Origin: a bacterium | GTDB lineage: Bacteria; Patescibacteriota; Andersenbacteria; UBA10190 | Reading direction: 5' to 3' | NCBI GenBank assembly: GCA_030698495.1 | Contig: JAUYKA010000035.1 | Span: 8,778 to 72,777 of the forward strand | Length of the DNA stretch: 64,000 nucleotides | Part shown: positions 8,289-55,361 of the stretch, in pieces | Layout: every line of letters starts with the position of its first letter | Numbering within the stretch: the stretch's first letter is position 1 | Translations under genes and position numbers: made by a program | The notes under the pieces: generated by a model | What the model saw: only the letters and a program-made list of their open reading frames with translations | Told to the model about the DNA's origin: nothing | The model's database searches: none

Positions 8289-8753
8289 CTATATTTGAGC
8301 CTTATCCAGAACAGATTGAATACCACCCCCGCCCAACATACCAATCAACGTATTCACAACCAAGAAAGCCACCGCAATAATAATCAGCCCTACAATCGCC
8401 CTGGTAACCGTAGTCTTCGCCGCTTCCAGCTCCCCCGGCGCGTTCTCCATAAAACTCCAGTAAAACATTCTGACGCCGCCGAATATAATAAACAATATCG
8501 CCACCAGACCCGCCAACCCTAACAATGTATTATATATATTAACTAACAGTTGAATAATATCCTCAACACCGCAAGGGTTTGAAGACTCCGTGACATCACC
8601 ATTCGGCAATGTCTTATACCTTATCGGATCGCAATCAGGCAACAACTGAATCGCACTCGCCACCCCCGGTGTCGCTATAAAAATCAATCCCGCAAATCCT
8701 GCCGCCACTATTAGTAATCTTATGTTTGCTGAAATTTTTGAAAATTGGTTCAT
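8289..8753 (-). CDS. Small secreted/membrane protein with a signal peptide plus two hydrophobic segments, giving a TrbC/VirB2-pilin-like topology. Family assignment is unsure.
   Basis: MNQFSKISANIRLLIVAAGFAGLIFIATPGVASA is signal-like. Two later TM segments are present. The start ATG 8751-8753 directly abuts the GGAAATTG repeat array. Confidence 0.5.
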   Translation of the reverse strand: MNQFSKISANIRLLIVAAGFAGLIFIATPGVASAIQLLPDCDPIRYKTLPNGDVTESSNPCGVEDIIQLLVNIYNTLLGLAGLVAILFIIFGGVRMFYWSFMENAPGELEAAKTTVTRAIVGLIIIAVAFLVVNTLIGMLGGGGIQSVLDKAQI

Positions 8754-8754
8754 T

Positions 8755-8794
8755 GGAAATTCAATGGAAATTGGAAATTGATAATTGGAAATTG
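8755..8794. repeat. Tandem array of four GGAAAT(T)G octamer-type repeats filling the HIT-to-next-gene intergenic space
   Basis: ggaaattcaatggaaattggaaattgataattggaaattg is present. The same motif family recurs at about 21.73, 41.01-41.14 and 46.42-46.48 kb and as the GGGAAATTTCCC palindrome at 10615. Confidence 0.7.
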
Positions 8795-21715: not shown

Positions 21716-21729
21716 AGTATTTGGTCATT

Positions 21730-21772
21730 GGAAAATTGAAGAATTGATTGGAAATTGGAAATTGAAAATTTG
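21730..21772. repeat. GGAAA(A)TTG-type tandem repeats (ggaaaattg, gaagaattg, ggaaatt, ggaaattg, gaaaatttg) between convergent topA and parB
   Basis: Seen directly in sequence. It is the same motif family as 8755-8794. Confidence 0.65.
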
Positions 21773-21847: not shown

Positions 21848-23278
21848 CTAGTCCTCAATCACATCCTGATCAACCGTATCCGGCAGTGGCTGCAAACCCA
21901 GCAGTCTCTCGATTAACTCCTGCGCTTCATCCTCGCTAAAAGCGTGAAATACCACTTCAAACCGATTCTTGTCCGATTTGAACATGACTCGCGCGTTATA
22001 ACCGAACTTATCCTGCAGCATCCCGTCGTATTTAAGCGCTAACTGCGGCCGCCCTCTGGTTTTCTTACGCAGCGGATCATTCAACTTCATTGTCCGCTGA
22101 ACACGACGCGCTCGGTTTTCCGCTTTGCGCACCGTTAACCCCTCATCCACCACATGATTATAGAACCGTATCTGTTTCTCTTCATCCGGAATCATCAATA
22201 TCGCCCGCGCGTGCCCGATAGAAATCTTGCTCTCAATCAAACCCCGCTGGATCTCCGCCGGCAGCTGTAGCAAACGGATAATATTAGTTATTCCTACCCG
22301 GCTGCGCCCCACTCGTTCGCCTATTTCCTCATGTGTCATACCGTATTCCTCGTTCAACCTCTGATAACCCATCGCCTCTTCCACTGGGTTTAAATTCTGT
22401 CTCTGCACGTTTTCCGTCAGAGCCAGCTCCAGCCGATGACGATCGGACGATACATCGCTTCTGATAACACACGGCACTTTCTCCCAACCAAGCCTCTTTG
22501 ACGCCCGCCAGCGCCGTTCGCCGGCAACTAACTGATACATCTTCTGTCCCGGCATCTTAGCCACCACCAGCGGCTGCAACATACCGTGCTGATCCAACGA
22601 TTGCACCAAGTCTTCCAAATCCTCTTCGTCAAACGCGCGCCGCGGCTGCAGCGGATTAACCTCAATATCACCGATAGTAATGTACTCCACCTTCTCACCC
22701 AATACGCGCCGCTCGCCCACTGCCGCCAAATCGTCAAACGCCGCCGCTACTTTTTCTTTAACTGTTTTTTTAGGCTCTGTTTGCTCTTCTTCCTTATTAG
22801 CTTTAACCCGCTTTTCTGCTTTAAGTGGTTCAACTTTTTCCGCCGCTATCGTTTCTTTGGCTTCCTCCGCTTCACTCTCCTTATCTTCATCCGTCTCGTT
22901 ATCTGCTTCAGCCAAAATTTCTTTATCCTTCTCATCCGGCTCTACTTCTATAGTTAATGGTGTCACCATCGGTTTAGCCGGCATCGGCTCCGGCACCGTC
23001 TCTTCTATCACATCAGCCTCCATTTCCTCTACCACTTGCACTTTTTTCTTCTCTACTTTAACCGGCTCCTCCTCAACCCCTACCGTTTCCTGCCACTGAA
23101 TCTCATCCGTATTTTCTTCCTCAATATCTTCCTCAACTTCATCGCCGCGCAAAGCCCTCACATTCTCCGGCTCATCCCCAACCGCCTCCATACTGTCTAT
23201 TTGTTCAATAATATCTTCGGCATTTTCCTTATGTCGTCTGGGTATTAATGAGGCCAAGCCTCGTCCTAATGGTGTCAT
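21848..23278 (-). CDS. parB: Chromosome partitioning protein ParB with a roughly 170 aa acidic low-complexity insertion after the N-terminal ParA-interaction peptide
   Basis: The N-terminus LGRGLASLIPRR is present. The ParB box GERRWRASKRLG is present. An HTH and a C-terminal dimerisation region are present. The protein is 476 aa, against a typical length of about 300. Confidence 0.85.
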   Translation of the reverse strand: MTPLGRGLASLIPRRHKENAEDIIEQIDSMEAVGDEPENVRALRGDEVEEDIEEENTDEIQWQETVGVEEEPVKVEKKKVQVVEEMEADVIEETVPEPMPAKPMVTPLTIEVEPDEKDKEILAEADNETDEDKESEAEEAKETIAAEKVEPLKAEKRVKANKEEEQTEPKKTVKEKVAAAFDDLAAVGERRVLGEKVEYITIGDIEVNPLQPRRAFDEEDLEDLVQSLDQHGMLQPLVVAKMPGQKMYQLVAGERRWRASKRLGWEKVPCVIRSDVSSDRHRLELALTENVQRQNLNPVEEAMGYQRLNEEYGMTHEEIGERVGRSRVGITNIIRLLQLPAEIQRGLIESKISIGHARAILMIPDEEKQIRFYNHVVDEGLTVRKAENRARRVQRTMKLNDPLRKKTRGRPQLALKYDGMLQDKFGYNARVMFKSDKNRFEVVFHAFSEDEAQELIERLLGLQPLPDTVDQDVIED

Positions 23279-24039
23279 AGATATAAATTTAATAATTCTT
23301 CTGACAAATACTCGTAAGCTTTGGCGCCCCGAGAATCTTTAGCATACTCCAAAATCGTCCGTCCCGTTGACGGCGCTTCCGCCAGCTCCGTATTTCGAGG
23401 AATAACACTGTCAAACACATGCCCGGGAAAAGTCTTACGCACTTCTTTCACTACCCGCCGCGCCAGCGCTGTGCGCCGATCGTACATCGTCAGCACCGCT
23501 CCCAGCACTTGTATCTGTGGGTTAAGATGCTTTCGTACCATGTCTACCGTATTCAACAACTGCCGTAATCCTTCCAGCGCGTAATACTCACACTGCACCG
23601 GAATTAATACCCGGTGCGCCGCTGCCAAAGCATTTACTGTTAACAAACCCAAGCTGGGCGGACAATCAACTAATATAAAATCAAAACTGGGCGCTAAATC
23701 CTTCAATGCCCGGCGCAATCGATATTCCCGGTACGGCTGATCCATTAATTCAATTGCCGCGCCCACCAAATCAGGCGTCGCCGGAATCACATTCAAATTT
23801 TCCTGCGTCGTCGCCTGCAACGCTTCTCTGGTCTGTTTTTCTCCTAACAAAACTTCATAAACCGTCGGTGCGCCATCCGCTACCTTCACGCCCAAACCGG
23901 CCGTGGCGTTTCCCTGCGGATCCATATCCACCACTGCCGTCGCCTTGCCGGAATTGGCCAAGTAGCCACCCAAATTAACGCTGGTCGTGGTCTTACCCAC
24001 ACCGCCCTTCTGATTTACAACCGCGATTACTTCTGTCAT
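23275..24039 (-). CDS. parA: Chromosome partitioning ATPase ParA/Soj
   Basis: The deviant Walker A KGGVGKTT is present. It overlaps parB by 4 nt (ATGA). Confidence 0.9.
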   Translation of the reverse strand: MTEVIAVVNQKGGVGKTTTSVNLGGYLANSGKATAVVDMDPQGNATAGLGVKVADGAPTVYEVLLGEKQTREALQATTQENLNVIPATPDLVGAAIELMDQPYREYRLRRALKDLAPSFDFILVDCPPSLGLLTVNALAAAHRVLIPVQCEYYALEGLRQLLNTVDMVRKHLNPQIQVLGAVLTMYDRRTALARRVVKEVRKTFPGHVFDSVIPRNTELAEAPSTGRTILEYAKDSRGAKAYEYLSEELLNLYL

Positions 24040-26230: not shown

Positions 26231-27550
26231 ATGAATAAGCCCGCAAAAAATCAGCATAAATTAGCCTTCATCGGCGCCGGTTATGTCGGTCTTGTTTCCG
26301 GCACCTGTCTGGCTGAAATCGGCCACACCGTCATTTTAGTCGACAACAACAAAGATAAAATCACTCGCCTTAATAAAGGTCAGATACCTATTTTTGAACC
26401 AGGCCTGGACGAGCTGGTAACCAAAAACGTCAAAGCAGGACGCTTGTCGTTTACCACCAGTCTCAAGGACGCTGTTAAAAATTCCGAGGCAATTTTCATC
26501 GCCGTTAACACCCCGCCTCTACCCAACGGTCGAGCCGATCTCTCTTTCGTAGCTGGTGCCGCCCGTGAAATCGCCGAGGCCGCCGACGGCTACAAAGTCG
26601 TTGTCGATAAAAGCACCGTCCCCGTACAAACCGGCGAGAGAGTGGCCGAAACAATCAAGCGCTACAATAAACGGCAAATTGATTTCGATGTTGTCAGTAA
26701 TCCCGAGTTTTTACGCGAAGGCTCCGCTATTGACGACTTTCTCCAACCCGATCGTATCGTTGTCGGCGTAGCCAACAAACGCGCCGAAAAAATCATGCGT
26801 GAAATATACTCGCCTATCGATGCTCCTTTTATTGTCACCGATGTTAAAAGCGCCGAACTGATCAAACACGCCAGTAATTCTTTCTTAGCCACTAAAATAT
26901 CTTTTGCCAACGCCGTCGCCAGAATTTGCGAACTATCCGGCGCCAACATTGATCAGGTAGTCGGCGGCATGGGACAAGACGCGCGCATCGGTAAACATTT
27001 CTTAAACGCCGGCATCGGCTATGGCGGCTCGTGTTTTCCTAAAGACGTATCTGCTTTTATCAATATCGCTGACGAGCTTGGCTACCATTTCGGCATCTTA
27101 AAAGAAGTGGAAAAAATAAATGAGCAAGCCAAACAACTTTTCTTGCAGAAAATCGAACAGGCTTTATGGGTTACTAAAGGCAAAACCATCGCTATGTGGG
27201 GCTTGGCCTTTAAGCCTAACACCGACGACATGCGCAACGCCCCTTCCATCGACATCGTTAATCAACTACACGCCGACGGCGCCGTTATTCAGGCCTACGA
27301 TCCCGCAGCTCAAGACACAGCCAAAGCTGTTTTAGGCAATAAAGTAAAATATATTAAAGACAAATACGATGCTCTGAAAAATGCCGACGCGCTGGTTATT
27401 GTCACCGACTGGAATGAATTCAAAGATCCGGATTGGAATAAAGTCGCCAAGCTTCTTCACAGTCCCATCATTATTGATGGCCGCAATATGTTCGACCCCA
27501 AAGAGATGGAAAAGAAAGGTTTTGTCTACCACTCGGTCGGCCGCGGCTAG
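26231..27550 (+). CDS. ugd: UDP-glucose 6-dehydrogenase
   Basis: The N-terminal NAD fold FIGAGYVG is present. The catalytic Cys region GYGGSCFPKD is present. The protein is 439 aa. Confidence 0.9.
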   Translation: MNKPAKNQHKLAFIGAGYVGLVSGTCLAEIGHTVILVDNNKDKITRLNKGQIPIFEPGLDELVTKNVKAGRLSFTTSLKDAVKNSEAIFIAVNTPPLPNGRADLSFVAGAAREIAEAADGYKVVVDKSTVPVQTGERVAETIKRYNKRQIDFDVVSNPEFLREGSAIDDFLQPDRIVVGVANKRAEKIMREIYSPIDAPFIVTDVKSAELIKHASNSFLATKISFANAVARICELSGANIDQVVGGMGQDARIGKHFLNAGIGYGGSCFPKDVSAFINIADELGYHFGILKEVEKINEQAKQLFLQKIEQALWVTKGKTIAMWGLAFKPNTDDMRNAPSIDIVNQLHADGAVIQAYDPAAQDTAKAVLGNKVKYIKDKYDALKNADALVIVTDWNEFKDPDWNKVAKLLHSPIIIDGRNMFDPKEMEKKGFVYHSVGRG

Positions 27551-27634
27551 AGCAGTAAATACAGTGAATACAGTAAATTAAGTAAATACAGTTACTGTAT
27601 TTACTGTACTCGCTGTATTTACTTTATTTACTGA
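27551..27634. repeat. Inverted array of GTAAATACAG/CTGTATTTAC tandem repeats forming a hairpin with about 40 bp arms between convergent ugd and the nucleotidyltransferase gene
   Basis: agtaaatacagtgaatacagtaaattaagtaaatacag is followed by its imperfect reverse complement ctgtatttactgtactcgctgtatttactttatttactg. Confidence 0.7.
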
Positions 27635-28317: not shown

Positions 28318-28436
28318 GTATTTAGTATTTAGTATTCCGTATATAGTATATTACAAAAATGTTGTCCACAAGAGTTATGACAAAAAAATCAACGATGCTA
28401 AATACTATATACAAAATACGAAATACTAAATACTAG
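28318..28436. repeat. Large inverted repeat with about 35 bp arms built from TATTTAG heptamers and a 44 nt spacer
   Basis: gtatttagtatttagtattccgtatatagtatatt pairs with agtatttagtatttcgtattttgtatatagtatttagc (the reverse complement of 28397-28436). It lies between the FG-GAP protein stop and the nucleotidyltransferase start. Confidence 0.7.
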
Positions 28437-34512: not shown

Positions 34513-34676
34513 GCGAGAGGCACTTTTCGCGGCACCTACTTCCGGCAACGCACTTGCCCCGTCCAGCGACGGGACTGCGCTCGACTAAAAGCCTGCCGCT
34601 CCGCCTTTTAAGGCGGAGACCATGCCGGCAAGCTTTTAGACGGTTGCCGGAAGTAGGCACCGCGAGTGCCGCTCGC
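34513..34676. repeat. Palindromic element copy C. It is inverted relative to copies A and B.
   Basis: Its reverse complement aligns with copy A through ccgtct(a/g)aa(a/g)gcttg(c/t)cggcatggtc(t/c)ccgcc ... gtcgagcgcag(t/c)ccg...gggcaagtg. The outer imperfect stem is gcgagaggcac...gtgccgctcgc. Confidence 0.7.
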
Positions 34677-34746
34677 CACGAAAGTCCATGTAGAATAGGC
34701 TAACAATAGCCATTCTATCCTGATGAAACTCATATTAAGTTTTGTC

Positions 34747-34782
34747 ATTCCGGAATTTTGCCAAGGGCAAAATATCCGGAAT
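34747..34782. repeat. Short hairpin related to the element core (attccggaattttgcc-aag-ggcaaaatatccggaat)
   Basis: It has the same X-TTTTGCC-n-GGCAAAA-X' architecture as the central hairpin of copies A and B. Confidence 0.5.
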
Positions 34783-34818
34783 CCAAGCGGAAATTCAACG
34801 CTCTAGTATAACGCACCA

Positions 34819-34997
34819 GCAAGCGACGCCACGACTTTTGCTCTTGGCGACCGTCTGAAGGCTTGTCGGCATGGTCCCCGCCGTTATTTTGCCGCGGCAA
34901 AATAACGGCGGGGCGACAAAACTTCAGTCGAGCGCAGCCCGCCCGCAGGGGGCGGGCAAGTGTGTCGTCCAAGAGTGAAAGTTGTGGCGCCGCTTGC
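34819..34997. repeat. Palindromic element copy A (179 nt), ending 12 nt from the rarA stop
   Basis: The roughly 33 bp imperfect outer stem has G-T/T-G wobbles. The core is gaccgtctgaagg...ggtccccgcc-gttattttgccgcggcaaaataac-ggcgggg...cttcagtcgagcgcag-cccgcccgcagggggcgggc-aagtgtgtcg. Confidence 0.75.
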
Positions 34998-35008
34998 TAA
35001 TTAAAATT

Positions 35009-36331
35009 TTACTTACCCCCGTGTAACATTTTCCGCGCCTCGTCAACGCGCCTTTTAACTTCCTTCTCAAACCCGTCACTGCCCGGTTCATAATAAATAT
35101 GCTCTTGAATACTTCCCGGCCGATATTTCTGCTCCACCACATGTCCGGCAAAATCATGCGGATACTTGTATCCAACTCCTTTGCCAAATTGCTTCATCCC
35201 TTCTATCGGTGCATTTGTAATATGTCCCGGCGGCGCGTCATTGCCGTGTAAACGCACATCATCCTTTGCCGCTTCCTTCGCCCTATACACACTATTGCTC
35301 TTCGGCGCCGCCGACAAATACACCGCCGTCTGCGCCAACGCAAACTCCGCTTCCGGCAGTCCCACCCACTTCAGCGCCTGACTGGCCGCCGCCGCCAGCA
35401 TCAGCGCGTGCGGATCCGCATTGCCTATGTCTTCCGACGCAAAAATCATCATTCGCCTGATGATGAACTTAGGATCTTCCCCTGCCAGCAACATCCGAAA
35501 CAGATAAAACAGCGCCGCGTCCGGATCCGACCCCCGCATACTTTTTATAAACGCCGAAATAGTATCGTAATGCGCGTCGCCTTTCTTGTCATACTGCACC
35601 ACTGACGCTTGCGCCGCCGATTCCACCTCTTCCCGCGTAATCGCTTTCTTCGACCTCGTTTTGCTTGAACCTCTGGCCAACACCATCCGCTCCAGAATAT
35701 TAAGCGCCCGCCGCGCGTCCCCACCCGCCAACTCCACGAGCGTCTTTCTGGCTTCCACTGACAGCTTCTCCTTTCCGGCTAAACCGTTTTCCTCATCCCG
35801 CAACGCTCGATCGATAATTTTCCCTATCGCTTCCTGATCGTGCGGTTCCAATTTAACCACTTCCGCGCGACTTACCAGTGCCGCGATAACTTCAAAATAT
35901 GGATTTTCCGTCGTCGCCCCTATCATCGTCACCACGCCTTCTTCCACCGCCGGCAGCAGCACATCCTGTTGCGCTTTATTAAACCGATGTATTTCATCCA
36001 CAATCAGAATCGTTCTCGTATTCATTTTGCGCCACTCTTGCGCCCGGCTTATCACTTCCCGTAATTCTTTCACACCAGCCGCCACCGCACTGATCCGCTC
36101 CACTTTCGCCGACATCACATTGGCAATTAAAAAAGCCAGGCTCGTTTTTCCTACTCCGGGCGGCCCCCATAAGATAAGTGATCCAACAAGGCCTTGTTCT
36201 ATTGAGCGCCTTAAAGCCGAATCATGCCCCAAAACTTTATTTTGCCCCACATACTCATCCAAATTTCGCGGACGCATTCTTGCCGCCAGCGGCACGTAAG
36301 ACTGGCTTATTTTGCTTTTAGTTCGTGGCAT
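35009..36331 (-). CDS. rarA: Replication-associated recombination protein A (RarA/MgsA AAA+ ATPase)
   Basis: Walker A ILWGPPGVGKTSLA is present. Walker B ILIVDEIHRFNK is present. The MgsA C-terminal domain is present. Confidence 0.85.
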   Translation of the reverse strand: MPRTKSKISQSYVPLAARMRPRNLDEYVGQNKVLGHDSALRRSIEQGLVGSLILWGPPGVGKTSLAFLIANVMSAKVERISAVAAGVKELREVISRAQEWRKMNTRTILIVDEIHRFNKAQQDVLLPAVEEGVVTMIGATTENPYFEVIAALVSRAEVVKLEPHDQEAIGKIIDRALRDEENGLAGKEKLSVEARKTLVELAGGDARRALNILERMVLARGSSKTRSKKAITREEVESAAQASVVQYDKKGDAHYDTISAFIKSMRGSDPDAALFYLFRMLLAGEDPKFIIRRMMIFASEDIGNADPHALMLAAAASQALKWVGLPEAEFALAQTAVYLSAAPKSNSVYRAKEAAKDDVRLHGNDAPPGHITNAPIEGMKQFGKGVGYKYPHDFAGHVVEQKYRPGSIQEHIYYEPGSDGFEKEVKRRVDEARKMLHGGK

Positions 36332-38621: not shown

Positions 38622-38665
38622 ACACAGGTCTGTATTTACTTTATTTACTGTGTTCTGTATTTACT
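38618..38665. repeat. CTGTATTTAC-family repeats with a flanking hairpin (gtaaacacag...ctgtgtt) between convergent genes
   Basis: gtaaacacaggtctgtatttactttatttactgtgttctgtatttactatact is the same unit as at 27551-27634. Confidence 0.6.
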
Positions 38666-38669
38666 ATAC

Positions 38670-39716
38670 TCACCCCGGCAGCTCTTCCGTGTTATTCTTA
38701 GCAACAAATATATCCGCCAATAAAATACTGATAACCGTAGCAATCGGCACCGACAATATAATTCCCACCACTCCGGCTAAACGCGCGCCCAATAAAATTC
38801 CGACTATCGTCACCAACGGATGCAAACCGATTGCTTTCCTCATGATATTAGGCACCAGCACATGCGCTTCAAATTGCTGAATAATAATATACATAGCCAG
38901 CACCACCAACCCCATCACCCAAGACATGGTGAACCCAACAGCAACCCCGGGAATAGCCGCCAATACCGGGCCAATATACGGCACAACCTCCAAAATTCCG
39001 GCAATCAACCCCAGCAACAAAGCGTATGGCACACCCAAAATCCAAAGACCAGTCCCTACCAGCAATCCGATAATTATTCCCAACGACACTTGCGCCAACA
39101 CCCATTTCCCCACTTTTTGCTGCGCCCGGTCAATTGCTCTTTCCGCGTAAGCCACGTGCATTGCCGGCGTCACCAGCCGTACAAATTTTTTCAAAGCTTC
39201 GCGCTCCACCACCAAATAAAACGTTAGCACAAACACAAACACTACCGTGAAAACCCCCGAAACAAATGTTCTAGTCTGCTGAAATATATTCACGCCTAAA
39301 TTCGCCAGATTGTCTCCGAATCTGCTTATCCCCGTCTGCAAATAACCCACGACTGCCGCCCGATCCACTTCCGGCACAAAAGTTATAAAACGATGCGCCA
39401 CTTGTATTATCGAAGGAACCGCTTGCGCTAGTTGCTGACTCTGTGTAACTAACGGCTCAACCATCAAAGACAACACCCCGGCCAATAATGCCAATACCAT
39501 TATATATATCAACGCCACCGAAATCATCCGCGGGATACGCCGCTGCTGCAGCCAATTAACCACCGGCTCAATCGCCGTCGCCAGCACCACCGCCGCAAAT
39601 AACATTAATAAAATATCGAAAATCAGATACAAAAACCATGCTCCGATCAGAATAATAATCACCCGGAAAATCGTCCCCGAGGTTATATCTATACTCATTC
39701 TGTTTCCGTTACCCAT
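38670..39716 (-). CDS. AI-2E family (PerM/UPF0118) membrane transporter
   Basis: The protein is 348 aa with about 8 TM helices and the characteristic long hydrophilic loop. Confidence 0.6.
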   Translation of the reverse strand: MGNGNRMSIDITSGTIFRVIIILIGAWFLYLIFDILLMLFAAVVLATAIEPVVNWLQQRRIPRMISVALIYIMVLALLAGVLSLMVEPLVTQSQQLAQAVPSIIQVAHRFITFVPEVDRAAVVGYLQTGISRFGDNLANLGVNIFQQTRTFVSGVFTVVFVFVLTFYLVVEREALKKFVRLVTPAMHVAYAERAIDRAQQKVGKWVLAQVSLGIIIGLLVGTGLWILGVPYALLLGLIAGILEVVPYIGPVLAAIPGVAVGFTMSWVMGLVVLAMYIIIQQFEAHVLVPNIMRKAIGLHPLVTIVGILLGARLAGVVGIILSVPIATVISILLADIFVAKNNTEELPG

Positions 39717-41013: not shown

Positions 41014-41137
41014 TTAATTTTCAATTTTCAATTTCCATTGAATTATCAATGACGCAATTTTCAAACACTAAAACTTTTCATCGTTGTGCTTGGAAATTGA
41101 TAATTGATTATTATATGGAAATTGGAAATTGGAAATT
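41014..41137. repeat. GGAAATTG-family repeat arrays in both orientations. These are aattttcaattttcaatttcc at 41014-41036 and ggaaattg at 41092, then three tandem ggaaatt units at 41117-41137 that overlap the glyQS stop codon.
   Basis: Seen directly in sequence. It fills the glyQS-M16 peptidase intergenic region. ORF-track entry 41104-41328 over it is judged spurious. Confidence 0.7.
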
Positions 41138-51367: not shown

Positions 51368-52105
51368 TTAAGTAGTTCGCACCATCGGCACCGTCTCGGC
51401 CACCACCATCGCATAATACCTCATCGCCGCCAGCACTTGTCTGCTTTCCTCCTTGGTCGCACTAAGCTGTAATGCCTTTTGCGGATACCTACCCAGCCAG
51501 CGCAGCGCGCGCAACAAACGCGGCGGCAGTGACAACTGCGTCCCCACAAAAGAATCGTGACACGACAAACATCGCCAACCTCCGGCTTGGGGATTCAATA
51601 TCACCGCTTCGTCCGGCTGGTTTCTGCCGCACGCTTGACACCGATTTAAATCCGGCTGCAAACCCGCACAACGTAGGGCATAACCGGCCACGGCTACCTC
51701 TAGAAAATCCCGCTTGGGCGCTGGCAACTCCGGAAACATCTGACAAGCATGATACAAAGCATCAAACAACTCCACCTGCACTTCTTCCTCTTCAAAAAGC
51801 CCCAAGACTAATCGTGCCAGCATCTCCGCGTGCTCCCACGCCTGCACATCACCGCGCAAAGCCAGATGATCATCCACCGTCTCCACCGCCGCCAGATATT
51901 TCCGGTCCGCCGTACCCGTTACAATCGCCAATACGTAAGTCAAAGGCTCCAAGTGCCCCCCACGCCGTGACGGTATCCGACGCACACCTTTAGCCAGCAC
52001 TCGCAGCAAACCTTGCTGCCGGGAAAACAGTGTCACCAGCCGATCCGCTTCATTAATGTCGCGACGCGCTAAAACCAGCGCGTGCAGCTTCTCCCGCTTA
52101 TTCAT
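51368..52105 (-). CDS. recO: DNA repair protein RecO
   Basis: The N-terminal OB-fold region LHALVLARRDINEADRLVTLFSRQQGLLRVLAKGVRR is present. A C4 zinc motif (CQACG...CLSC) is present. Confidence 0.8.
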   Translation of the reverse strand: MNKREKLHALVLARRDINEADRLVTLFSRQQGLLRVLAKGVRRIPSRRGGHLEPLTYVLAIVTGTADRKYLAAVETVDDHLALRGDVQAWEHAEMLARLVLGLFEEEEVQVELFDALYHACQMFPELPAPKRDFLEVAVAGYALRCAGLQPDLNRCQACGRNQPDEAVILNPQAGGWRCLSCHDSFVGTQLSLPPRLLRALRWLGRYPQKALQLSATKEESRQVLAAMRYYAMVVAETVPMVRTT

Positions 52106-52183
52106 TCATATATTATAGCACATACCCTCTCCACTCCCCGTCCTCTTTCCTCCTCCCGGAAGGGAATAAACTAACCTATGAGC

Positions 52184-52353
52184 AAAAATTTTCTAATCTT
52201 CTGCTCTTAGCGACCGTCTGAAGGACTGCCAGCCTGGTCCCCGCCTAAATTTTGCCGCGGCAAAATTTAGGCGGGGTGGCAGGCCTTCAGCCGAGTAACG
52301 CCCGCGCTGGGGCGGGCGTTATGTGTCGCTAAGAGCAGAAGATTAGAAAATTT
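52184..52353. repeat. Palindromic element copy B (170 nt), ending 6 nt from the ileS stop
   Basis: A perfect 29 bp outer stem (aaaaattttctaatcttctgctcttagcgac / gtcgctaagagcagaagattagaaaattt) encloses the same core as copy A. The core reads ccgtctgaagg..ggtccccgcc-taaattttgccgcggcaaaattta-ggcggggt..ccttcagccgag..cgcccgcgctggggcgggcg..gtgtcg. Confidence 0.75.
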
Positions 52354-52358
52354 CATCA

Positions 52359-55300
52359 CTAACTATCACCTTTCATCACTCCAATATGCATTTCTTCCCC
52401 ATCTACTTTAAAATCCCCCCCCGCATCCTCACTGCCGTTTTCCATAACTTCATCCGCCTGCAACACATCCAGTATTAATACTTTCTGGCTCTCCACTGTT
52501 TTACGCAGCTTCTCACTGGAAGTTGTTATTACCAACTTAATCCTATCATCCAGCGCGTACCCCGCTTCCCGGCGCAACACCTGCCCCCGCCTGATAATCT
52601 CCCGCGCTCGGCCTTCTTCCTTTAACTCCTCTGTCAAAACAATGTCTAAAGCCAACTTCACCTTGCCTTCCTCTCCGCTCACCGCGTACTCGTCGCTATC
52701 GGGTAGCTTCTCCGCATATTCCACATTCTTAACATTCACCTCTTCTTTTATAATATTCATAATTTCTTCCGCCGGCGGCACACCCATCACCATCATCTTA
52801 TTCAATGGTTGGCGCACTTTTATACCATGTCCGGCCCGTATGGCTAACCCGGCCGAAACCGCCTCGCGCGCCTGCTTCATTACCTCTAATAACTCCAGTT
52901 TATTTTTCTCAAAATCAACCGCAACCGGCAGACGCGATAAATGCACCGACTCCTCTTTTGTCAGATTACGATAAATATTTTCCGTCACAAAGGGCATAAA
53001 GGCCGCCAACAACCGGACACAACGCACCAACACTTCATGTAACGTGCCAAAAGCTTCGTCACGAATTTTATCACTGGCCGGCCGCTGAAACCGCCCCCGT
53101 GATCGCCTTATATACCAGTTACTCAAATCATCAACAAACCCCGTAAACGCCCGCGCCGCTAGATCTATTTGATAATCATCTGCCGCCGACACCACCTCGT
53201 TTTCCAGCTGAACCAGCCTGGCTCTAATCCATTTGTCCAATATATTGCTGCTCTCCGTCACCTGATCACCCGGCTGCCAGTCATGTGTGTTGGCGTAACG
53301 AACAAAAAAGCTGTAAGCGTTCCACAGTGTCAGATAAAAACCCCGCTGTACTTGCTGCATCTCTTTTTCTGAAAACCGATACGGCTCGCCCAGGCTGGTA
53401 CCGGCCAACAGGTAAAATCGCAAAACGTCCGCCCCGTATTTGGCTATTGTCGGCTCCGGCTCCGGATAATTTTTCAACTTCTTGGATAATTTTTGTCCAT
53501 CCTCCGCAAATATCAATCCCGACCCGATTACATTTTTGTAGGCCGGCTTATCCTTGCCTAAACCAATATCGTCTTTAGTTAATGCTGTCGCCAATACATG
53601 CATCACATAAAACCACGCGCGGGTTTGTTCAACACTCTCCGCAATAAAATCAGCCGGAAAACTTTTTTCTACAAACTCCTTATTGGCAAACGGATAGTGC
53701 CACTGGCTGTACGGCATCGCCGCCGAGTCGAACCAGACATCCAACACTTCCTCCACACGTTTCATTTTCCCCTCGCCTTTCGTACAACTCCACGTCACCT
53801 CGTCAACGTACGGCCGGTGCATATCATCTAATTGCTTCTGTCCGGACAACTCTGCTAATTCCGCTAAACTGCCGGCGCAAACTCTTTCCCCGCACTTATC
53901 ACACTCCCAAATTGGCACCGGTACACTCCAAAAACGATTACGCGACACCGCCCAATCCGGCGCCGATTCTATTCCTTTGGCAAACCGCCCATGCTTCACA
54001 TGTTTCGGCGTCCAATTTATCTGCTCATTTATTTCCAGCATCCGCTTTTTCAAATCCGTCACCTTTATAAACCAAGTATCCAACGCGTAATAAATTAGCG
54101 GCTCATCGCACCGCCAGCAATAAGGATAGCTGTGCGTAAATTGCTCCGCTTTCAGCAACAAACCACGCTCACGCAAATCATCCGTCACCTTGTCGTTAGC
54201 CGCGAATATCTTTTCGCCGGCCCACGGTTTTACTTCATCCGTAAAACGCCCGTCCGAATCCACGTTGCGAATTACCGGCAGCCCCAGTTTTTTTCCCAAT
54301 TCAGCGTCTTCCTCGCCGAAAGCCGTGGCGATATGCACCAATCCCGTACCGTCTTCGCCCGTCACGTGCCCGCCATACACTACTTTGTAGCCACCCTCAA
54401 CCGCCGAGAAATTATACAGCGGCTCATACGTTAAGCCGTCCAGTTCGCTCCCGCTCCATTGCTTTTTTACCGGCAAGTCCTCGCCAAAAATTGCTTTGAT
54501 TCTCTGCTTAGCCACAACAACTTCTTTGCCTTCGTAATCCACGCTCACGTATTCCAACTCGGGGTTTATCGCTACTGCCACGTTACCCGGTAACGTCCAG
54601 GGTGTTGTAGTCCAGATGGCCAGATATAGGCCATCTGACTCTGAGCGAGCGAAGCGAGTCGAAGAGCCATTCACCTTTAACAACACATAAACCGCCGTAT
54701 CCGTCCGGTCATGATAATTACTGGTCACTTCAAAATTAGACAGCGGCGTCGCACAGCGAATGCAGTACGGTGTCGAACGAAAATCCTTGTAAACCAACTC
54801 CTTCTCCCATAACCTCTTAAACGCCCACCATTCCGATTCCATGTAATCACGGTCAAGCGTAGCGTAAGCCTGATCATAATCGGCCCACCGCCCGATTCGC
54901 TTCAGCGTCGTCGTGAAGTCGTCAATGTATCGAAAAACAGTATCGCGGCATTTTTGATTAAATTTTTCTATACCGTATTTCTCAATATCTTTCTTCGACT
55001 TAAAACCCAGTTCTTTTTCTACTAACGTTTCCACCGGCAACCCGTGACAATCCCAGCCTACTCGGCGCGGCACGTGATACCCCTGCATCGTTTTATAGCG
55101 CAGCACCGTGTCTTTGATCGCCGACTGTAAGATATGACCGTAGTGCGGCTTGCCCGTCGCGTACGGCGGCCCATCATAAAAAGTATAAATTTTCCCCCTA
55201 GCAGTCTGCTCTAAAGAACGCGCATATATCTTTTTCTCATCCCAGTAATCTAAAATCTCCCGCTCCAGCTCGTCAGCCGCCATCCGCGGCGGCACATCAT

Positions 55301-55361
55301 CAAAATATGGTTTCTTTTGACCCATAACACTAAAGGTAAAATCCGGCTGAACAAAATGCAA
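52359..55361 (-). CDS. ileS: Isoleucyl-tRNA synthetase
   Basis: The HYGH (HIGH-type) motif is present. KLSKK (KMSKS) is present. The CP1 editing domain and a C-terminal zinc-binding region are present. The ORF-track start is a TTG and the true start is probably an internal Met. Confidence 0.95.
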   Translation of the reverse strand: MHFVQPDFTFSVMGQKKPYFDDVPPRMAADELEREILDYWDEKKIYARSLEQTARGKIYTFYDGPPYATGKPHYGHILQSAIKDTVLRYKTMQGYHVPRRVGWDCHGLPVETLVEKELGFKSKKDIEKYGIEKFNQKCRDTVFRYIDDFTTTLKRIGRWADYDQAYATLDRDYMESEWWAFKRLWEKELVYKDFRSTPYCIRCATPLSNFEVTSNYHDRTDTAVYVLLKVNGSSTRFARSESDGLYLAIWTTTPWTLPGNVAVAINPELEYVSVDYEGKEVVVAKQRIKAIFGEDLPVKKQWSGSELDGLTYEPLYNFSAVEGGYKVVYGGHVTGEDGTGLVHIATAFGEEDAELGKKLGLPVIRNVDSDGRFTDEVKPWAGEKIFAANDKVTDDLRERGLLLKAEQFTHSYPYCWRCDEPLIYYALDTWFIKVTDLKKRMLEINEQINWTPKHVKHGRFAKGIESAPDWAVSRNRFWSVPVPIWECDKCGERVCAGSLAELAELSGQKQLDDMHRPYVDEVTWSCTKGEGKMKRVEEVLDVWFDSAAMPYSQWHYPFANKEFVEKSFPADFIAESVEQTRAWFYVMHVLATALTKDDIGLGKDKPAYKNVIGSGLIFAEDGQKLSKKLKNYPEPEPTIAKYGADVLRFYLLAGTSLGEPYRFSEKEMQQVQRGFYLTLWNAYSFFVRYANTHDWQPGDQVTESSNILDKWIRARLVQLENEVVSAADDYQIDLAARAFTGFVDDLSNWYIRRSRGRFQRPASDKIRDEAFGTLHEVLVRCVRLLAAFMPFVTENIYRNLTKEESVHLSRLPVAVDFEKNKLELLEVMKQAREAVSAGLAIRAGHGIKVRQPLNKMMVMGVPPAEEIMNIIKEEVNVKNVEYAEKLPDSDEYAVSGEEGKVKLALDIVLTEELKEEGRAREIIRRGQVLRREAGYALDDRIKLVITTSSEKLRKTVESQKVLILDVLQADEVMENGSEDAGGDFKVDGEEMHIGVMKGDS

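Follow-up and report, generated by a model that had tools for sequence, protein, structure and literature searches.

A small, lineage-restricted family of three-armed hairpin repeats in Candidatus Andersenbacteria

Introduction

The repeats of the REP/BIME-RAYT (Y1 HUH) system are multi-copy intergenic palindromes that lie just past genes, frequently as oppositely oriented pairs. Each REP is one hairpin of 20-40 nt that carries GTAG on its 5' side and is recognised as a folded single strand via a few fixed nucleotides beside the hairpin; REPs have no terminal inverted repeats that are recognised as duplex and no target duplication, and their effects on mRNA 3' ends are only a by-product. MITEs (Correia/NEMIS, ERIC, RUP, bcr1) are non-coding long hairpins that are scattered between genes, vary among strains and are restricted to lineages, and they have conserved terminal inverted repeats and target-site duplications. 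Integron attC sites (e.g., the Vibrio VCRs) lie directly past the stop codon of the upstream gene in one orientation, with the recombining fold antisense to the gene; they carry RYYYAAC and GTTRRRY boxes, conserve structure over sequence and, when long, have branched and variable terminal structures. The IS200/IS605-derived PATEs are defined by an imperfect subterminal hairpin at either end, by duplication-free insertion on the 3' side of a fixed tetra- or pentanucleotide, and by TnpA in the genome. Unlike all of these elements, quasipalindrome correction is a mutational process, in which template switching creates, perfects and expands inverted repeats (PMC8794818; PMC13100816).

Here we analyse copy B, a palindromic element located between ileS and recO in a 64,000-nt stretch of a Candidatus Andersenbacteria genome (hereafter the window). 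The genomes of CPR bacteria (Patescibacteria) are small and repeat-poor, and we looked in the literature for a described structured repeat family of CPR bacteria or Andersenbacteria and found nothing relevant. We find that copy B belongs to a small, undescribed and lineage-restricted family of three-armed hairpin repeats. This element joins traits of selfish repeats (gain, decay, deletion and clustering) to traits of functional structures (covarying helices, an invariant junction and one better-folding strand).

Results

Copy B and its fold

As a single strand, copy B (168 nt) folds into a three-way junction with a free energy of -118.4 kcal/mol, compared with -55.6 +/- 4.0 kcal/mol for shuffled sequences (z = -15.9); the complementary strand reaches -116.4 kcal/mol, and z is -16 for either strand. 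Read 5' to 3' on the plus strand, it consists of P1, CGT, P2, the bulge, P3, the closing strand of P2, CCGAG, P4, TGT and the 3' arm of P1 (Table 1). The P1 arms, each of 29 nt and 110 nt apart, are 100% complementary, and the 29-mer has just these two occurrences within the window, with 0 expected (100 shuffles). P2 is a helix of 14 bp with one mismatch that is conserved near the junction and covaries among the copies over its distal 6 bp. The tip of P3, ATTTTGCCGCGGCAAAAT, is common to copies A and D and remnant E and is absent from C and L127, and the stem sequence of P4 varies from copy to copy.

A preliminary description of this DNA had reported a palindromic element after ileS with a perfect 29 bp outer stem, a perfectly palindromic central hairpin and a core shared with copy A. 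The perfect arms and the fold confirm that the element is real, the central hairpin is a perfect 38-nt palindrome with exactly the sequence that had been quoted, and the core recurs in copy A with 74% ungapped identity. The gene names given there (ileS, recO and rarA) agree with Pfam, rarA/MgsA being encoded at 35009-36331 on the minus strand. One correction concerns the position: the element does lie close to the ileS stop codon (TAG, 52359-52361), but it does not start at 52184, since pairing begins at 52186; 5 nt (52354-52358) separate the stem from the stop codon, so that the element begins at the sixth base past it.

Table 1. Positions of copy B, its parts and neighbours, and the other family members. 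Coordinates are those of the window unless a contig is named; fold energies are in kcal/mol, and sense is the more stable orientation (the strand given for each intact copy).
Feature	Position	Strand	Sense fold	Antisense fold	Remarks
Copy B	52186-52353	+	-118.4	-116.4	
P1 5' arm, copy B	52186-52214	+			inner 17 nt CTTCTGCTCTTAGCGAC homologous to A and D; outer 12 nt AAATTTTCTAAT unique to the locus
Junction CGT, copy B	52215-52217	+			invariant in 5/5 copies; CG pairs with CG of YCGAG (52292-52293)
P2 5' strand CTGAAGGACTGCCA, copy B	52218-52231	+			pairs with 52277-52290
7-nt asymmetric bulge GCCTGGT, copy B	52232-52238	+			conserved; family consensus GCNTGGT
P3 hairpin, copy B	52239-52276	+			perfect 38-nt palindrome; base CCCCGCC/GGCGGGG conserved
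P2 3' strand TGGCAGGCCTTCAG, copy B	52277-52290	+			from the fold
Junction CCGAG, copy B	52291-52295	+			family consensus YCGAG
P4 side hairpin TAACGCCCGC-GCTGGG-GCGGGCGTTA, copy B	52296-52321	+			10-bp stem 52296-52305 / 52312-52321
P1 3' arm, copy B	52325-52353	+			25 nt at 52329-52353 are the sole remainder in the deleted allele (L001)
Segment missing in GCA_034372665.1	52176-52328				153 nt; 25 nt at 52329-52353 (most of the 3' arm) retained
ileS	52359-55361	-			upstream gene of copy B; identity by Pfam
recO	51368-52105	-			downstream gene, 80 nt from copy B; identity by Pfam
Copy A	34819-34997	+	-120.6	-110.9	full length; P1 of ~33 bp with 3 G.U pairs and 1 A.C mismatch
Copy C	34527-34665	-	-104.3	-85.3	intact, shorter, reverse orientation; short P3 loop TTAAAA
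Remnant E	34736-34803	-			between C and A; CGT, GCTTGG and one P2 strand retained; P2 pairing lost
Copy D	L133:168-344	+	-125.8	-114.9	intact; 6.9 kb left of the window start, same contig family; 22 nt past the ndk stop
Copy L127	JGI metagenome contig	-	-87.6	-83.6	distant member; starts 4-12 nt past the stop codon of an ORF fragment

A family of six repeats

The family has six known members, five of them from one genome: copies A, B and C and the decayed remnant E in the window, copy D in the same-genome contig L133, and the distant copy L127. A covariance-model search recovered A, B and C in the window, D in L133, and L127 with scores of 97-156 bits, and in the window and the same-genome loci it returned no members beyond those listed here. 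The five copies of this genome fall within about 80 kb. Three of them (C, E and A), in two orientations, share the spacer between rarA and leuS, where copy A ends 11 nt before the rarA stop codon (35009-35011) and copy C lies 83 nt upstream of the leuS start. The alignment of remnant E with the reverse complement of A scores 49 (shuffled sequences score 18.7 +/- 3.4, with a maximum of 38), and E has a P3-like hairpin (34745-34778; ATTCCGG...CCGGAAT, tip TTTTGCCAAGGGCAAAA) in which the P3 base is altered on both sides. Copy L127 was the one match in a scan of JGI metagenomes. The scan pattern imposed TGGTCYCCGCC, GGCGGRG and TTYAGYCGAG, but neither the CGTCT of this copy nor its bulge GC. The protein encoded beside L127 belongs to an uncharacterised family and was of no help in placing that contig. 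As separate observations on L133, copy D is bracketed by a further 10-nt inverted repeat (L133:147-156 / 362-371), and a perfect 28-nt palindrome, TATTACCACATATCGATATGTGGTAATA, of a sequence unrelated to the element, occupies L133:1-28, exactly at the end of a Logan contig.

We searched for the element more widely. A scan of species-representative contigs with the pattern ACCGTCTN{10,16}GCNTGGTCNCCGCC gave at least 119 chance matches in G+C-rich genomes, and among the matches listed none had the rest of the element. Three pattern scans of viral contigs gave chance matches or none, and BLAST against phage and plasmid collections found no match to the element. In Rfam 15 the element matched nothing at gathering or permissive thresholds, the single gathering-level match in the window being a tRNA-Leu; in the permissive search the best score on the element was that of Leu_leader (29.9 bits, threshold 50), and the remainder were generic hairpins (microRNA precursor). 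The families for which it fell below the gathering threshold include self-cleaving ribozymes, retron msr, T-box, 6S, Y RNA and the IscB/TnpB guide RNAs. We also considered a T-box leader for leuS or ileS, a retron ncRNA and a hammerhead, and rejected each given that there is no Rfam match at the gathering threshold. In a further example, a MOBQ-type oriT has an inverted repeat followed by the consensus NWACCNNTAAGTGCGCCCTYNN (PMC3832669). This candidate was rejected as well: after P4 only copy C has AAGTGCG, while A and D have AAGTGTG, B has TTATGTG and L127 has GAGCGT, and the segment is 62% conserved.

Gain and loss at the ileS-recO spacer

We compared the locus with four related Andersenbacteria loci (L131, L132, L137 and L138; 74 kb in total). 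Sources assign the RecO protein of the window to Candidatus Andersenbacteria, and even its closest relatives share less than 60% identity with it. The relatives have the same order of genes around ileS, recO and rarA. In three of the four, ileS immediately precedes recO, the spacers being 73, 48 and 22 nt long; in the fourth an extra gene stands between the two. No family members were found in the 74 kb of the four loci; thus the element is not ancestral at the ileS-recO site, and among the sampled relatives the family is missing or rare. Relative to related species, copy B is, judged by these sequences, a gain of this lineage.

The same site is polymorphic within the population. The assembly GCA_034372665.1 (L001/L134), from a sister strain, matches the window over 6.7 kb at 100% and 99.92% identity, and its ileS-recO gap is only 100 nt. 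CTA is the only microhomology at the deletion junction, and the missing segment opens with CTATGAGCA, which repeats the inner 3' arm (CTAAGAGCA) imperfectly and in direct orientation, a geometry that would fit hairpin-stimulated slippage. The junction k-mers of the short allele are absent from the filled allele, so it is a real allele and no assembly collapse. We considered whether the short allele might be a virgin empty site, with the outer stem of B made from the flank at insertion, and rejected this possibility, since the allele has kept 13 nt with homology to the conserved inner arm in A and D: the retained CTAAGAGCAGAAG corresponds to CCAAGAGTGAAAG in A and CCAAGAATAGG in D, so the allele is a deletion remnant (a solo arm). 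This sole polymorphic site is a deletion and not an insertion, and no transposition event was observed.

Other contigs from this population, L002 and L135 from SRR13727534, have the full element, broken at the central palindrome. All short-read assemblies of the population that we compared (L002, L128-L130 and L135) break at the central palindrome or inside copies, and at the A/C and D sites the contigs of other assemblies are broken within elements or end too early. Assembly breaks of this kind fragment metagenome-assembled genomes and hide the element from surveys. As an unconnected observation, the sister-strain contig L134 has a 1.3-kb stretch without a called gene beside smpB (L134:4896-6198), in which ARAGORN found no tmRNA or tRNA and the element model found no match.

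Covarying helices and a better-folding strand

The five intact copies (A, B, C, D and L127) were aligned by fitting them to the P1-P4 model, and with this fitting, which favours structure, 94.2% of the cells are standard pairs and 21 of 38 pairs are changed on both sides. The observed values were reached by none of 500 shuffles, and pairing dropped to 39-49% when the 3' partners were slid by 1-3 columns. On the same alignment RNAalifold independently gives the same helices, with 23 of 46 pairs compensated; in this prediction P4 is lengthened by 4 bp, and there is a further CG/CG helix of 2 bp. Identity among the five copies is 100% for CGT, 91% for the P3 base and 89% for the bulge GCNTGGT, and 65%, 62% and 58% for P2, P4 and P1, respectively; some of the conserved positions of L127 had been set in advance by the pattern used to find it. 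This pattern of conservation is the inverse of the expectation for a recently amplified repeat.

The P1 arms show how the copies differ. Over the 29 positions of C and D that can be compared in register there are 17 identities, 12 transitions and 0 transversions, with pairing intact in each copy; as a pattern of substitutions, this would fit evolution via wobble intermediates under selection for pairing. B and A have the inner 17 nt alone in common (15 of 17 identical), and this inner segment is conserved among A, B and D only. The outer 12 bp of B are unrelated to the other copies, and the P1 of L127 is unrelated. We rejected the view that all P1 stems are locus-specific, as A, C and D have P1 arms that show homology in register, and only the outer 12 bp of B are unique.

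One and the same orientation gives the stabler fold in each of the five copies, by 2-19 kcal/mol, and there are 15 G.U pairs in the sense folds compared with 5 in the antisense folds. One G.U pair at the junction (alignment columns 91/123) is kept in four of the five copies, including L127. GC skew is uniform in the window, at about -0.25 over 64 kb, with no switch near parA/parB (parAB, 21848-24039). The minus strand is thus the leading strand, and the orientation of the copies relative to transcription is inseparable here from their orientation relative to replication.

The covariation in four helices, the invariant nucleotides of the junction and bulge and the strand preference would be expected if the copies were small structured ncRNA genes, or a new ribozyme or protein-binding RNA. 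The better-folding strand would then be transcribed, convergently with the upstream gene, and the junction and bulge would be the putative active or binding site. The excess of G.U pairs is also in keeping with an RNA, and the kept G.U pair at the junction, the constant stabler strand and the transitions-only divergence of P1, as expected for wobble intermediates, would fit a host-selected RNA as well as a selfish repeat or better. Nevertheless, we consider ncRNA genes an unlikely explanation. We looked upstream of the copies for an independent promoter of the better-folding strand and found no promoter-like site. Rfam has no matching family, and even at E <= 10 none of the known ribozymes is a match. 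The copies are multiple, clustered, decaying and deleted within one population, none is present in the 74 kb from the four relatives, and the perfect 29-bp and 19-bp stems point to templating at the DNA level over selection at the RNA level.

Position relative to genes and transcription signals

In four of the five intact copies the element follows a stop codon at a distance of 4-22 nt and precedes the promoter of the next gene, and for A, B, D and L127 the better-folding strand is antisense to the gene with the adjacent stop. The preliminary description had taken such a placement to fit either a 3'-end stabiliser or terminator, or a mobile element that targets gene 3' ends. The first of these would be a cis-acting mRNA element: in read-through transcripts from ileS, rarA and ndk, the hairpin would stop RNA polymerase or block 3'-to-5' exonucleases and so insulate the upstream mRNA from the next gene, as enterobacterial REP sequences do. 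Besides the placement, the extremely stable folds on both strands favour this explanation, as do the spacers of the relatives, which likewise have no obvious strong terminator. An intrinsic terminator is a short G+C-rich hairpin directly followed by a U run. We found no hairpin-plus-U-tract terminator at or adjoining any copy (B, A, C and the ends of D), no U-tract after any copy and, in the scan, no sigma-70-like promoter at or adjoining any copy; on the mRNA strand, the stem base of copy B is A+U-rich and is followed by UUGCUC, which is not the arrangement of an intrinsic terminator. The mRNA strand also has the less stable fold in four of the five copies, the conserved G.U pairs would become A.C mismatches in the mRNA, and a simple barrier needs neither conserved unpaired motifs nor a three-way junction. 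Furthermore, C and E are oppositely oriented and lie upstream of leuS, and the sister strain has lost copy B with no other change; the element is dispensable there. With the canonical signals absent and no positive support from these comparisons, the predicted terminator or stabiliser role is not supported, and an mRNA 3'-end element is in our judgement improbable; the element may have a weak effect on mRNA 3' ends as a by-product.

The suggestion of a mobile element survives in part. Comparison of orthologous loci, which the preliminary description had proposed, finds the element in none of the four relatives, and it is therefore not an ancient conserved sequence at ileS-recO. The polymorphism within the population also speaks for an inserted, possibly mobile element, although the single event seen is a loss. 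Targeting of gene 3' ends is consistent with the placement but unproven by it, since selection against insertion into the downstream promoter gives the same picture.

On the downstream gene itself we note a TATAAT box about 6 nt before the ATG of recO (window 52106-52125, minus strand) and comparable -10-like boxes immediately before recO in the relatives. This spacing suggests that recO transcripts may be leaderless or near-leaderless.

Neighbouring genes and other repeats

The genes of the window are housekeeping genes (ftsZ, ftsA, hisS, lepB, pth, mfd, dprA, topA, parAB, leuS, rarA, tatD, tgt, recO, ileS, argS and others), and we found no transposase, HUH nuclease, reverse transcriptase, recombinase or integrase gene in the 64 kb. 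At the flanks of A, B, C and D there is no direct repeat on the element borders that would represent a target-site duplication; a CTAWGAGCA repeat at copy B is imperfect and lies partly inside the arm. No conserved termini were found among the copies, and no flanking sequence has been carried along with the dispersed copies. Given that the window holds no target duplication, conserved termini or mobility gene, we infer mobility only from copy number and patchy distribution.

Other repeats are present in the window. A+T-rich repeats of the GGAAATTG type, both direct and inverted and with up to 50 nt at 88% complementarity, occur at 8737-8786, 21727-21770 and 41016-41137 and look like a second family of intergenic repeats. 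Units of 9 nt (CTGTATTTA-like) stand in tandem at 27546-27633, where they form an imperfect 40-nt palindrome, and again 11 kb away at 38630-38675. At 28318-28435, upstream of the gene for a large FG-GAP surface protein, TATTTAGTAT-like units form an inverted repeat of 32 nt with 91% complementarity.

Discussion

We propose that copy B is a member of a lineage-restricted family of non-coding, structured palindromic repeats, similar to REPs and MITEs, that propagates via a folded single strand recognised at the conserved junction and that is shaped by template switching; we put the chances of this explanation at about even. The repeats would be units of 140-180 nt in which P1 closes the structure, P2 with its 7-nt bulge leads into P3, and P4 stands at the side. 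They would multiply inside this Candidatus Andersenbacteria genome as selfish or duplicative DNA, and copies would survive where they are harmless, immediately downstream of a stop codon and before the next promoter, to be lost later by decay or deletion. Propagation would require a folded single strand, either RNA or single-stranded DNA, with a few fixed nucleotides, unpaired or at the junction (CGT, GCNTGGT, YCGAG and the P3 base), and these would be the recognition surface for a trans-acting enzyme presumably encoded elsewhere in the genome. The stems would matter only as structure and would thus diverge by compensated changes.

The perfection of the stems, and probably also the outer 12 bp of P1 in copy B, would result from intrastrand template switching at the hairpin during replication, and the same hairpin would render the locus prone to deletion, as in the sister strain. 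For instance, D leaves a 3-nt segment of P3 unpaired (GTT/CTA), while the corresponding segments of A (GTT/AAC) and B (TAA/TTA) are perfectly paired but differ from each other, which looks as if A and B had each copied one arm from the other, in opposite directions. For these three adjacent double changes, the flawless 29-bp and 19-bp stems and the unique outer stem of B, intrastrand template switching would be the simplest explanation. That the palindromes have no function, being made and enlarged by template switching during replication and spread by ordinary duplication, is very doubtful: template switching can create and perfect stems in one step (PMC8794818), and the outer 12 bp of B and the opposite P3 corrections in A and B look templated, but neither the near-invariant unpaired motifs common to the distant L127, whose stems differ completely, nor the dispersal to four separate spacers without carried flanks would be explained.

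A bolder and tentative idea, which we consider unlikely, goes beyond the proposed spreading repeat. The three-way-junction core (CGU, the GCNUGGU bulge, YCGAG and the kept G.U pair) could be the putative active or recognition site of a new class of single-strand-specific elements in CPR bacteria. It could belong to a new self-processing or protein-binding RNA carried on a mobile repeat, or to a new, attC-like recombination site of folded single-stranded DNA, placed just past stop codons on the antisense strand, whose enzyme has yet to be connected with it. Should there be a cognate enzyme, the element would be a handle for finding it. The element would also be a natural marker of strain-level variation in these uncultured bacteria.

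Comparison with described systems separates the features that are familiar from those that are not. Quasipalindrome correction would account for the perfect arms, the compensated multi-base differences, the growth of the outer stem into the flank and the hairpin-stimulated deletion, but it leaves the conserved core and the dispersal unexplained. The absence of duplication fits a PATE, but there are no shared nucleotides before the copies, and the element is one closed three-way junction and not two end hairpins. The element differs from integron attC sites in its motifs, in that the inner P1 reads GCGAC/GTCGC, GCAAC/GTTGC, GCGGC/GCCG or TGGGG/CCCCA and no copy has both boxes, and in its surroundings, in that the flanking genes ileS, recO, rarA, leuS and ndk are syntenic housekeeping genes and not cassettes, with no integrase in the window. 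Unlike MITEs, in which the termini are conserved, its outermost ends are the least conserved part and its conserved nucleotides are internal and unpaired; terminal inverted repeats are not conserved among the copies, which show no target-site duplication, and there is no cognate transposase among the window genes. REPs differ from it in size, in branching and in motif, as the element is 140-180 nt long with a three-way junction and no GTAG is found at the 5' side of the copies. There are likenesses as well. With attC sites the element shares its place directly past the upstream stop in one orientation, a better fold antisense to the gene, the conservation of structure over sequence and a long, branched form with variable ends. 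With MITEs it shares size, non-coding character, long hairpins, intergenic scatter, strain variation and restriction to a lineage, and with REP/BIME repeats it shares multiple copies past genes, opposite orientations (A compared with C and E), a few fixed nucleotides beside the hairpin of a strand that would be recognised when folded, and the lack of duplex-recognised termini and target duplications. The element is closest in behaviour to REP/BIME-type repeats and hairpin-forming MITEs, and its position and strand logic resemble those of integron attC sites.
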